DNA from: Escherichia phage PhiR49_2
Strand: one strand, 5' to 3'
Length of the DNA: 40,988 nucleotides
Sequence record: PV340570.1
Position 1 is the stretch's first letter. Every line of letters starts with the position of its first letter. Below, piece after piece: positions 8,940 through 9,156 of this stretch. Made by a program: the position numbers and the translations under genes. A model generated the notes under the pieces. It saw only the letters and a list, made by a program, of their open reading frames with translations. It was not told the DNA's origin and did no database searches.

Positions 8940-8964
8940 ATTGGCGTCCTGAAATTCGCACATG
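8940..8964 (+). repeat. Copy 1 of a duplicated ~25-bp element (ATTGGCGTCC…AAATTCGCACATG)
   Basis: ATTGGCGTCCTGAAATTCGCACATG; second copy at 9105-9144 carries a ~17-bp insert between the two half-elements. Confidence 0.6.
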
Positions 8965-8968
8965 CGCA

Positions 8969-8992
8969 TAACCGCGCTTCAGCGGTTTTTTT
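8969..8992 (+). terminator. Rho-independent terminator (tR1-like position)
   Basis: Stem ACCGC/GCGGT with a 6-nt loop followed by a T7 run; sits between the two copies of the duplicated element. Confidence 0.5.
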
Positions 8993-9104
8993 GCGCACGT
9001 TTCCTCACATCCAAATTATGGTGGGGCGTGCAGGGGCATCGAAAGATGCGCCGGGGTCATGTGCGACCGGTTACGCCAACCCTGTACGTCTCACCACCTC
9101 TGTG

Positions 9105-9144
9105 ATTGGCGTCCCATGTGGTGAGTTTTCAAAATTCGCACATG
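9105..9144 (+). repeat. Copy 2 of the duplicated element, immediately upstream of the second Rha-like gene
   Basis: ATTGGCGTCC-catgtggtgagttttca-AAATTCGCACATG; ends 13 nt before the ATG at 9157. Confidence 0.6.
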
Positions 9145-9156
9145 AGGATGTCACTA

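Follow-up and report, generated by a model that had tools for sequence, protein, structure and literature searches.

The segment at 8881-9190 of Escherichia phage PhiR49_2 (record PV340570.1; "the window" denotes the whole 40,988-nt stretch of DNA that was analysed) is very probably a complete antisense-RNA immunity cassette of the P1 c4 / P4 CI / Gifsy-1 IsrK-STnc1160 type, working by the mechanism proposed below. The cassette belongs to the early right operon of a lambdoid prophage, where it precedes a Rha-family gene and, by analogy with the known systems, most likely keeps this downstream gene silent. The two copies of the element described as duplicated in an earlier note on this DNA are target sites for a small phage antisense RNA, whose gene lies between them. 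The regulator is what that note had called "small GC hairpins", and the first repeat together with the terminator forms a separate small RNA of the IsrK / seqA type; both had been missed. The features of the cassette and its surroundings are as follows.

8859-9707, plus strand: long open reading frame of 282 aa, beginning ahead of the cassette promoter and sharing the reading frame of Rha
8881-8909, plus strand: promoter-like element, TTGATT (8881-8886), a 17-nt spacer and TACACT (8904-8909), with a predicted start at about 8916
8916-8992, plus strand: IsrK-like leader or small RNA (the P4 seqA region), Rfam RF01394
8939-8949, plus strand: target site a1, core TTGGCGT (8941-8947), complementary to a'
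8952-8964, plus strand: target site b1, core TCGCACATG (8956-8964), complementary to b'
8970-8992, plus strand: intrinsic terminator of the IsrK-like RNA, stem AACCGC/GCGGTT, 6-nt loop, T7
9014-9101, plus strand: C4-type antisense RNA (P1/P7 c4, P4 CI RNA, Salmonella STnc1160), Rfam RF01695
9057-9066, plus strand: b', the loop of C4 hairpin 2 (TCATGTGCGA), pairing with b1 and b2
9073-9079, plus strand: a', a single-stranded C4 junction (ACGCCAA), pairing with a1 and a2
9104-9114, plus strand: target site a2 in the Rha mRNA leader, core TTGGCGT (9106-9112), complementary to a'
9118-9125, plus strand: GTGGTGAG between a2 and b2, complementary to the 3' arm of the C4 closing stem (CTCACCAC, 9090-9097)
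9132-9148, plus strand: target site b2, core TCGCACATGA (9136-9145), overlapping the Rha Shine-Dalgarno sequence GAGGA (9144-9148)
9156-9707, plus strand: Rha-family protein of 183 aa, the cargo gene (Pfam PF09669, 110.8 bits)

The repeat itself was established by exact searches of the window. GATTGGCGTCC is present in two exact copies (8939-8949 and 9104-9114), as is AAATTCGCACATG (8952-8964 and 9132-9144). For the 11-mer, the two matches compare with 0.06 expected, and two or more copies arose in 0 of 100 shuffles of the window; for the 13-mer, the two matches compare with 0.00 expected, and window shuffles never gave two copies. These exact searches are decisive, while allowing one or two mismatches gave chance-level counts that were uninformative. 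The 25-bp element is indeed found twice with both halves exact, at 8940-8964 and 9105-9144 as had been reported: copy 1 reads ATTGGCGTCC-TG-AAATTCGCACATG, and copy 2 reads ATTGGCGTCC, then 17 nt (CATGTGGTGAGTTTTCA), then AAATTCGCACATG. The 17-bp insert attributed to the second copy is present, but the halves of the first copy are split as well, with a half-repeat spacer of 2 nt (TG) in copy 1 versus 17 nt in copy 2. Identity extends one base further 5' (G8939 = G9104), and beyond the second half 16 of 18 positions are identical. The repeat ends 11 nt before the start codon (ATG, 9156-9158), correcting the 13 nt counted earlier, and the end of the b2 core is 10 nt from the same ATG.

The hairpins between the copies had been taken for separate elements and actually form a single structured RNA of 88 nt, with a minimum free energy of -46.5 kcal/mol (z = -5.08 against shuffles). 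The Rfam C4 model (RF01695) matched this segment over its full length (model positions 1-87) at 9014-9101 on the plus strand, with 75.1 bits against a gathering score of 45 and E = 5e-13. Its architecture is a long closing stem around two hairpins. Among relatives, the 17-bp closing stem is paired in 99.8% of cases and shows 4 compensatory pairs; in hairpin 1, where pairing reaches 100%, 4 of 5 pairs are compensatory; hairpin 2 is invariant. The unpaired C4 segments are the reverse complements of the half-repeats, b' being CATGTGCGA and a' being ACGCCAA. An invariant AU|G stands at the position matching the 5' end of P1 c4 and an invariant CCACC at the 3' end; by analogy with the ends annotated in the P1 record, the mature form is predicted to be G9020-C9098. 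The AUG in the C4 5' arm (the orf45 start; ATG 9018 here) is likewise invariant among relatives.

Upstream of the C4-type RNA lies the IsrK-like leader, which opens at its 5' end with two hairpins, the second carrying a1 in its loop, and continues with b1 and the intrinsic terminator. It matched the Rfam isrK model (RF01394) at 8916-8992 with 61.2 bits (gathering 50; E = 7e-11), and in the alignment of relatives 99.5% of hairpin 1 cells are paired. The c4-a1b1 model (RF03163) gave 26.1 bits at 8903-8955 (E = 1.7e-4), below its gathering score of 46.7, despite which the a1 loop and the hairpin arrangement were correctly aligned; the same model gave 48.1 bits for Gifsy-1 and 51.0 for P1, both of which pass, and 44.1 for P4, just under the gathering score. 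In this region only C4 and isrK scored above gathering, and the sub-threshold matches were only c4-a1b1 and a SorX-like match (8750-8817, minus strand), the latter at chance level (E = 1) and a mere terminator resemblance. The promoter-like element is almost invariant in 40 related loci, and the isrK match starts at 8916, from which we infer promoter activity at 8881-8909. A simple consensus promoter scan did not return TTGATT-17-TACACT, which has only 8 of 12 consensus positions and falls below threshold.

The intrinsic terminator that had been placed between the two copies is there, with its stem at 8970-8987 and a T run to 8992, and is presumably the counterpart of the Gifsy-1 IsrK terminator and of P4 t1. 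Every relative carries a hairpin and a T run at this position, with two distinct hairpin sequences among them. When a1 and b1 were masked in silico, the terminator probability predicted for the window rose from 0.56 to 0.93, and it also rose in two other alleles; no such gain appeared in most other alleles, where the terminator is already predicted to form, and these predictions do not support C4-enhanced termination as a general feature.

In the window, b' is complementary to b2 at 10 of 10 positions (9136-9145) and to b1 at 9 of 9 (8956-8964), and a' matches a1 and a2 at 7 of 7 each. We followed these pairings through 36 aligned related cassettes and through a separate survey of 82 unique cassettes, with the same result. 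In the 36 aligned cassettes, the 7 bp of a1:a' were paired in 97.6% of cells with both sides changed in 6 of 7 pairs, the 9 bp of b1:b' in 98.4% with both sides changed in 7 of 9, and the 10 bp of b':b2 in 97.1% with both sides changed in 8 of 10. The observed covariation score was reached in 0 of 500 shuffles, and registers slid by 1-3 columns were just 32-55% paired. Since a 3-nt indel shifts the register in two alleles, a':a2 was scored by duplex energies and exact-complement searches. The a' 7-mer found a mean exact downstream complement of 7.0 nt in cognate versus 4.0 nt in non-cognate combinations (82 cassettes). Mean duplex energies for cognate versus non-cognate partners were -16.3 versus -10.6 kcal/mol for a':a1, -10.9 versus -5.8 for a':a2, -15.4 versus -6.2 for b':b1 and -16.4 versus -7.4 for b':b2.

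The survey of 82 cassettes contained 12 a' and 21 b' variants in 34 combinations. Counted as alleles, at least 10 exist for a and about 20 for b; they are freely recombined, and a1/a'/a2 and b1/b'/b2 change together. Tandem arrays of cassettes also exist, each unit with a different a/b pair. The repeat, for which the earlier note had looked to conservation in relatives, is not conserved as a sequence, but all three complementary partners change together, which on the alignments reads as a stronger sign of function than sequence conservation. A further conserved pairing involves the stretch between a2 and b2. There, GTGGTGAG is followed by TTTTCAAAATT, and its pairing with CTCACCAC gives an alternative helix with a2 in its loop; this helix is 99.6% paired in relatives, with 2 compensatory pairs, and is also possible in P4 (GCTATCGCC / GGCGATAGC) and in Gifsy-1. 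Any link between it and the P4 terminator t4 is speculation.

Past the target sites, the first ~35 nt of Rha (9159-9190) are C-rich and G-poor, and the C-rich tract is conserved, P4 kil included. The strongest C-over-G bias in the region is at 9130-9219, with C at 0.33-0.35 and G at 0.12-0.13, and 9159-9190 is a candidate Rho entry site. Rha is assumed here to be an antirepressor. The long open reading frame reads in frame across IsrK, the terminator, C4 and a2/b2 into Rha. Its frame is open in 41 of 41 unique lambdoid variants, where the other two frames hold 0-8 stops, and open-frame lengths are bimodal, falling under 150 nt in 38 cassettes and reaching 300 nt or more in 49, with zero between. 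A homologue is annotated in RefSeq (WP_000587264.1). Residues 16-110 of the 282-aa product, corresponding to nt 8904-9188, matched Pfam PF10554 (Phage_ASH) with 53.7 bits (gathering 26). This domain coincides with the cassette, and to judge by the sequence the Pfam "Ash domain" is the translation of the RNA cassette; a paper on Stx-phage regulatory regions describes it as without known function (PMC8951638). Several relatives show GGAGG and an ATGA overlap with the preceding gene at the start of the long frame. ATG 8859 in the window has no obvious Shine-Dalgarno sequence, and translation of the long frame is therefore uncertain here.

By analogy with the known systems, most transcripts from the cassette promoter would end at the terminator and yield the short IsrK-like RNA of ~77 nt. 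Read-through transcripts would be cut by RNase P at U9019|G9020 and, after 3' trimming behind CCACC, would give a C4-like RNA of ~79 nt. This RNA is expected to pair with a2 and b2 and keep ribosomes from binding at the start of Rha; the C-rich RNA after the ATG, left untranslated, would then be open to Rho, with probable Rho-dependent termination, and both Rha and the downstream replication genes would be silent from the cassette promoter. Pairing with a1/b1 could serve two roles. One is to let the cassette regulate its read-through by feedback, as happens at terminator t1 of P4; in the other, modelled on Gifsy-1 IsrK acting in trans, the short RNA would be a decoy that removes C4 from a2/b2 and turns the gene on. 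Transcripts from upstream (pR) may be translated across the whole cassette as one open reading frame and so be insensitive to the RNA, an override that we liken to eta from PLL in P4 and that is doubtful in this window because the long frame lacks a good ribosome-binding site. The a and b alleles would set the specificity of the RNA, that is, which phages repress which.

The same observations bear on three other explanations. One is a cis-only switch as in the published Gifsy-1 model, in which the unprocessed read-through transcript folds a1/b1 onto a'/b' and leaves the leader translationally silent, the short IsrK-like RNA is a trans activator, and free C4 on a2/b2 has little or no part; we consider this unlikely for the present locus. 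The published model differs from that of P1 in its stress on cis pairing in the unprocessed transcript and on translation of orf45, a small ORF beginning in the C4 5' arm, with no C4 at a2/b2, and Gifsy-1 genetics and native gels back both a1:a' pairing in cis and IsrK activation in trans (PMC4825925). It is also favoured by a1:a' and b1:b' co-variation as strong as that of the downstream pairs, by the invariance of the orf45-start AUG, and by the ability of the leader alone to fold with its Shine-Dalgarno sequence paired (9108-9120 : 9139-9152, z = -2.7). Yet a2 and b2 are kept, co-varying with a' and b' in every cassette, which a switch based only on a1/b1 leaves unexplained, and among the four pairings b':b2 exceeds the others in both length and stability. 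The Gifsy-1 double mutants G28A/C162U and G31A/C159U regain a1:a' and nevertheless stay derepressed (224 and 327 versus 4 units; PMC4825925), as expected if the a':a2 pairing matters too. Moreover, in the P1 record it is a2 and b2 that are credited with repressing the translation of icd-ant.

We give the two remaining explanations far less credence. The repeats might be internal to a real "Ash domain" in a 282-aa Ash-Rha protein, with the RNA structures incidental. The frame open in all lambdoid variants, the above-threshold PF10554 match, the annotation as a coding sequence and indels that preserve the reading frame would all fit such a protein, which we nonetheless hold to be highly improbable: the amino acids at the variable sites are not conserved at all while base pairing is, the P1 and Gifsy-1 cassettes stop 21-33 nt upstream of the cargo start with all RNA features kept, and PF10554 also matches the old P4 "cI" ORF, though not epsilon. 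A need for ribosome passage accounts for the open frame better than a protein domain does. The earlier note had also offered protein binding, by which the repeats would be operators (for Rha itself, a CI-like repressor or Cro) flanking the terminator. In favour of this idea, the repeats are direct, lie near a promoter-like element and the beginning of a regulatory gene, and adjoin two DNA-binding genes, but the sites are not conserved among phages with 76-99% identical Rha and change with the complementary C4 sequences. The half-sites stand 2 nt apart in one copy and 17 nt in the other, with no dyad symmetry, and an equal architecture is seen upstream of Icd, ORF6N and kil, which are unrelated cargo. 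The repeat halves co-vary with the complementary RNA loops and are not kept as sequence, and on that ground we reject the operator reading, to which we allow next to no chance. What does hold from the earlier note is its other suggestion, an RNA-based switch with antisense logic and a terminator upstream of an antirepressor-type gene, supported by the C4 and isrK matches and by the complementarity.

Such cassettes are widespread. Homologous ones occur in 307 phage records, the majority from Stx-converting phages, and sequence resembling the 2.6-kb region that contains the cassette was present in 1783 of 5426 complete E. coli genomes. In public annotation the region is simply protein-coding, under such names as "Rha family phage regulatory protein", "peptidase" or "Ash domain", where it in fact holds two small RNAs and their targets. 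An RNA layer over Rha-type genes beside replication genes could bear on prophage induction and on interference between prophages. We advance only tentatively, and as a joint proposal that may well be wrong, that the a and b alleles form a two-key recombining code between lambdoid prophages and that the "Ash domain" is a mere footprint of the RNA cassette. If this were true, the a/b code would decide which co-resident lambdoid prophages, many Stx phages included, silence or activate each other; the targets of this cross-talk would be Rha-type and downstream replication genes, reached via C4-like RNAs and IsrK-like decoys; and the Ash frame would be kept open so that pR-derived ribosomes override RNA immunity.

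Among known systems, immI of P1/P7 has the same order on one strand, with promoter, a1, b1, hairpin and T run, C4, a2, b2 and the start of the first gene. The spacing is close to that seen here, and in the P1 record b2 lies 10 nt from the icd start codon, equal to the distance from b2 to Rha. The C4 5' arm is nearly identical in the two (AATTATGGTGGGGCGTG), a' and b' occupy equal structural positions, and the Rfam C4 score is 68.8 bits for P1 versus 75.1 here. The differences lie in the cargo (icd-ant in P1, Rha here), in the a and b alleles, and in the leader, which scores 61 bits here and 35 in P1 with the isrK model but 26 here and 51 in P1 with c4-a1b1. In addition, the P1 frame is closed 33 nt upstream of icd, whereas the whole cassette here lies in an open frame. 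Unlike in P1, we know of no C1 operator at the promoter of this cassette.

The immunity region of P4 contains Rfam C4 (74.9 bits) and isrK (60.8 bits) matches in the order found here. The promoter-like element of the window corresponds to PLE in P4, as it does to PisrK in Gifsy-1 and P1c4 in P1. Both P4 and this locus match PF10554 and have a long open reading frame running from upstream of the promoter into the first gene, of 214 aa in P4 (containing kil, 65 aa) and 282 aa here. The function of the P4 "cI" ORF is said to have been shown by Deho et al. in 1992 to reside in the CI RNA, not in a protein. The start context and N-terminus of P4 kil (GGAGGCTGCCATCATGGCTACAACC / MATTLTPSHPE) resemble those of Rha (GAGGATGTCACTATGGCAACCACC / MATTPTQTHPK), and the P4 a allele (GTGAGAA / TTCTCAC) is present among E. 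coli Rha cassettes. P4 differs in having ~75 nt extra between t1 and CI, and its cargo is kil followed by the satellite-phage replication operon, where the present locus has Rha within an early operon of lambdoid type. What t1, t4, timm and eta/kil do is known for P4 only. The C-rich tract of the window is at the place of the Rho-dependent terminator timm, which in P4 starts at the kil N-terminus (coordinates from PMC3177188).

Gifsy-1 (isrK - orf45 (STnc1160) - anrP) yields isrK, c4-a1b1 and C4 matches in the present order and shares its a allele with the window (GATTGGCGTC / ACGCCAA). Compensatory mutation showed that G28/G31 of Gifsy-1 IsrK pair with C162/C159 (Hershko-Shalev et al. 2016, PMC4825925), and by sequence mapping these positions fall on a1 and a' of our locus. 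IsrK supplied in trans raised anrP translation 139-fold (PMC4825925). The orf45 AUG is the invariant AUG of the C4 5' arm; in Gifsy-1 this frame runs as far as the anrP start, which it overlaps in ATGA, and a stop closes it two codons before the AUG, whereas the equivalent frame here is fused to Rha and open far upstream. The Gifsy-1 cassette differs further in lying after the Q gene instead of in the early right operon, in its cargo AnrP, an ORF6N protein and not Rha, in its b allele (CGGTGAT) and in a C4 loop 4 nt shorter.

The comparison with P22 drawn in the earlier note holds only in outline. In sar/ant, as in the mechanism proposed here, a small RNA that pairs with the ribosome-binding site keeps an antirepressor-type gene from being translated. 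P22 sar, an opposite-strand transcript spanning the start of ant, is complementary to its target throughout. The regulator here shares the strand of its target, lies 40-80 nt upstream of it, uses two short pairing segments, and is placed between its two target sets, the second lying upstream, as in P1 c4 and P4 CI. No minus-strand promoter or terminator was found within 9100-9160. With regulator and targets on one strand and a different architecture, sar-type control was rejected.

The cassette thus belongs to a kind already described, and the result here is mainly the correct and complete annotation of a known element: an "IsrK-C4 immunity system" was reported in P4 and lambdoid prophages by Barquist et al. 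in 2013 (PMC3632133).

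We resolved the duplicated element upstream of the Rha-like gene into two half-repeats, GATTGGCGTCC at 8939-8949 and 9104-9114, and AAATTCGCACATG at 8952-8964 and 9132-9144, which are separated by 2 nt in copy 1 versus 17 nt in copy 2. When exact words were counted against 100 dinucleotide-preserving shuffles of the window, none of the shuffles (0/100) contained two copies of either word, with expected counts of 0.06 (GATTGGCGTCC) and 0.00 (AAATTCGCACATG). The duplication reported in the earlier note is thus real and correctly placed, and the intrinsic terminator described between its copies was found as well, with a stem at 8970-8987 and a T run to 8992. 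The Rha-like gene begins at ATG 9156, 11 nt past the end of the repeat and not 13 nt as stated before.

An Rfam scan of the whole window at curated thresholds yielded two matches above them in the cassette region, listed below with the unpaired segments of the C4-type RNA and a neighbouring pair of minus-strand signals.

Features in and beside the cassette
8916-8992: isrK (RF01394), 61.2 bits, above the curated threshold
9014-9101: C4 antisense RNA (RF01695), 75.1 bits, above the curated threshold
9057-9066: b', the hairpin-2 loop of the C4-type RNA, TCATGTGCGA
9073-9079: a', the junction of the C4-type RNA, ACGCCAA
8871-8866 and 8847-8842, minus strand: promoter-like site, TTGAAA, 18-nt spacer, TATCTT, with TG upstream
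8775-8755, minus strand: stem of a strong intrinsic terminator, then T8

The C4-type RNA is 88 nt long and folds into two hairpins inside a 17-bp closing stem (-46.5 kcal/mol, z = -5.1 against shuffles). The GC structure noticed earlier between the copies is therefore present, as this single RNA rather than as separate small hairpins. Its b' segment is the reverse complement of the second half-repeat at 10/10 positions downstream and 9/9 upstream, and each copy of the first half-repeat contains TTGGCGT, the complement of a'. Because the unpaired parts of the RNA are reverse complements of both half-repeats, the duplicated element is, judged by sequence, two target sets (a1/b1 upstream, a2/b2 downstream) of an antisense RNA encoded between them. 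Copy 1 lies inside the IsrK-like RNA, where a1 sits in the second hairpin's loop, and GAGGA (9144-9148), the Shine-Dalgarno sequence, is overlapped by the b2 duplex.

We then examined conservation by aligning the 300 nt upstream of the gene from 80 loci encoding a 76-99% identical Rha protein. The promoter-like TTGATT-17 nt-TACACT, the leader hairpins, the hairpin with its T run and the C4 stems are all kept. The a and b sites vary as discrete alleles, and within each locus all three partners (upstream site, C4 segment, downstream site) share one allele. What is conserved at the two copies in related prophages is hence their complementarity to the C4 segments and not their sequence. Pairs were counted in an alignment of 36 cassettes, including Stx2_112808, mEp460, ST64B and Gifsy-1.

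Pairing and covariation in the 36-cassette alignment
a1:a': 97.6% of cells paired; both sides changed in 6/7 pairs
b1:b': 98.4% of cells paired; both sides changed in 7/9 pairs
b':b2: 97.1% of cells paired; both sides changed in 8/10 pairs

The observed covariation score was reached by 0/500 shuffles, and registers slid by 1-3 columns were only 32-55% paired. The a':a2 interaction, which carries a 3-nt indel, was assessed by duplex energies instead of by column; cognate and non-cognate energies were distinct for all four interactions (-16.4 versus -7.4 kcal/mol for b':b2). A second sample, collected solely by the conserved C4 5' arm, comprised 82 unique cassettes, in which 12 a' variants and 21 b' variants made up 34 combinations. 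Here the exact complements downstream had a mean length of 7 nt (a') and 8.6 nt (b'), compared with ~4 nt for non-cognate cassettes. The window's b allele is rare, occurring once among 92 parsed cassettes of this sample.

Both control modes offered in the earlier note, protein binding and RNA, can be weighed against these data. A protein-binding site was rejected, as the a and b alleles co-vary with the C4-type RNA segments. Antisense-type RNA control is supported by the complementarity of the C4-type RNA to both copies, although the likeness drawn to P22-like antirepressor control gives way to the c4/CI type.

What is established here is which parts are present, how they are ordered, that they are complementary and co-vary, and that b2 overlaps the Shine-Dalgarno sequence; the mechanistic steps are inferred from the P1, P4 and Gifsy-1 systems. 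Most transcripts started at the cassette promoter would stop at the terminator, giving a short IsrK-like RNA. Read-through RNA would be cleaved by RNase P at the invariant AU/G (U9019/G9020, a site assigned from the annotated ends of the homologous P1 c4) and trimmed after the invariant CCACC. The C4-like RNA would then pair with a2 and b2, blocking initiation at the Rha start, and the untranslated RNA beyond would be terminated by Rho. The gene's first 35 nt are the most C-rich, G-poor stretch of the region and resemble the P4 kil start, where the Rho-dependent terminator timm is located (PMC3177188). Read-through would be under feedback from the a1/b1 leader, which, when made as a short RNA, would act as a decoy. 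The free C4 RNA may act in trans, as in P1, or the switch may operate inside the unprocessed transcript, as in Gifsy-1. Since the a2/b2 pairings persist and are strong, and since Gifsy-1 double mutants rescue incompletely (PMC4825925), we argue that a2 and b2 matter. When a1 and b1 were masked in silico, as a model of C4-enhanced termination, the predicted probability of the terminator rose in the window (0.56 to 0.93) and in two other alleles, but most alleles are predicted to form the terminator anyway.

Other folds may form around the start codon. In the predicted fold of the leader alone, GGCGUCCCAUGUG (9108-9120) pairs with CACAUGAGGAUGUC (9139-9152) (z = -2.7), sequestering the Shine-Dalgarno sequence in cis, and by eye such pairings appear possible in other alleles. 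GGTGAGTTT (9120-9128) and AAACTCACC (9175-9183) are perfect complements, whose helix would close a 46-nt loop containing b2, the start codon and the Shine-Dalgarno sequence.

In 41/41 unique variants the Rha reading frame continues upstream of its start codon for 315 nt or more without a stop; the other two frames hold 0-8 stops, with a second stop-free frame in only 1/41. Indels among E. coli variants always sum to multiples of three. Open lengths in a wider sample are bimodally distributed, with 38 cassettes at <150 nt, 49 at 300 nt or more, and none between. Annotators call the long ORF (window 8859-9707) as a gene, and the part of it translated from nt 8904-9188, the cassette itself, matches Pfam PF10554, 'Ash protein family'. 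PF10554 also matches the old P4 'cI' ORF, while epsilon has no match. In several relatives the long ORF starts with GGAGG and overlaps the gene before it by ATGA; no such signal accompanies the window's ATG 8859. Unlike the cassette in the window, those of P1 and Gifsy-1, which stand alone, have stop codons closing the frame, with all RNA features kept. We therefore infer that the 'Ash domain' is the footprint of an RNA cassette in a frame held open for ribosome passage, and not a protein domain. P4 likewise has a long ORF (214 aa) containing the first gene kil (65 aa), presumably the eta/kil pair. For P4 eta/kil, Forti et al. reportedly found in 1999 that transcription no longer responds to the RNA when translation proceeds from the upstream promoter. 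The coincidence of PF10554 and cassette recurs at three related loci (L083 877-2028, L084 883-2040 and L081 2179-3324), and public records label the region 'peptidase', 'regulatory protein Rha' or 'Rha family phage regulatory protein'.

Genes behind the cassettes encode Rha (window), a 120-aa Rha-like protein, Icd-like and ORF6N/AnrP-like proteins, kil-like peptides and small unknown proteins. Tandem arrays, with cassettes ~656 nt apart, occur in some phages: three cassettes in L118, where the 120-aa Rha-like gene follows every cassette, and two each in L103, L104, L156, L171 and L177. Where cassettes could be parsed, each unit has its own a and its own b allele. Two related loci deviate. L020 (IMGVR_UViG_2541047867_000011, ~900-1200) is a deletion variant in which the 3' part of an upstream Rha-1-like gene runs in frame into the IsrK terminator; this variant lacks the cassette promoter, a1 and b1 and retains C4, a2 and b2. 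In L039 (~1198-1203) the sequence around the Rha start codon is CATCAT-GCT, one base fewer than in relatives, whether through a frameshift, pseudogene formation or a sequencing error. The code of alleles, the arrays of cassettes and an RNA origin of the 'Ash domain' would be of wider interest should they prove undescribed and functionally relevant in Stx phages.

The minus-strand promoter-like site and terminator (8750-8871) sit between the first Rha gene and the cassette and could yield an ~85-nt RNA, where lambda has oop; this segment matched no Rfam family, the sole match being SorX at E = 1. Further downstream, three tRNA genes (15381-15453, 15464-15537, 15554-15627) are followed by STnc100 (RF02076, 140 bits, 15707-15906), an arrangement that looks typical of the region upstream of late genes in lambdoid/Stx-type prophages.

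The closest counterparts are in P1, P4 and Gifsy-1. The P1 record shows promoters, a1, b1, c4 RNA, a2, b2 and icd in exactly the same layout, with the remark 'repression of icd ant translation', and the distance from b2 to the start codon is 10 nt in both P1 and the window. In the P4 immunity region the CI RNA is a C4 match (74.9 bits), and the seqA region, like the window's leader, is an isrK match (60.8 bits). The Gifsy-1 isrK-orf45-anrP locus has isrK, c4-a1b1 and C4 matches and shares the window's a allele. Compensatory-mutation experiments in Gifsy-1 used IsrK G28/G31 and C159/C162 (PMC4825925). Mapping these residues to the sequence places G28 and G31 at the G's of a1 (ATTG28GCG31T) and C159 and C162 at the C's of a', which shows that the a1:a' pairing has been proven experimentally in this homologue. 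There, IsrK supplied in trans gave 139-fold higher translation of the downstream antirepressor (PMC4825925). Weinberg et al. 2010 listed c4 and c4-a1b1 as motifs, and Barquist et al. 2013 (PMC3632133) equated the IsrK-like and C4 RNAs with P4 seqA and CI RNAs and noted an 'IsrK-C4 immunity system' in some lambdoid prophages. Given these counterparts and earlier statements, the kind of element is already known, and the window locus adds a member with a rare b allele.
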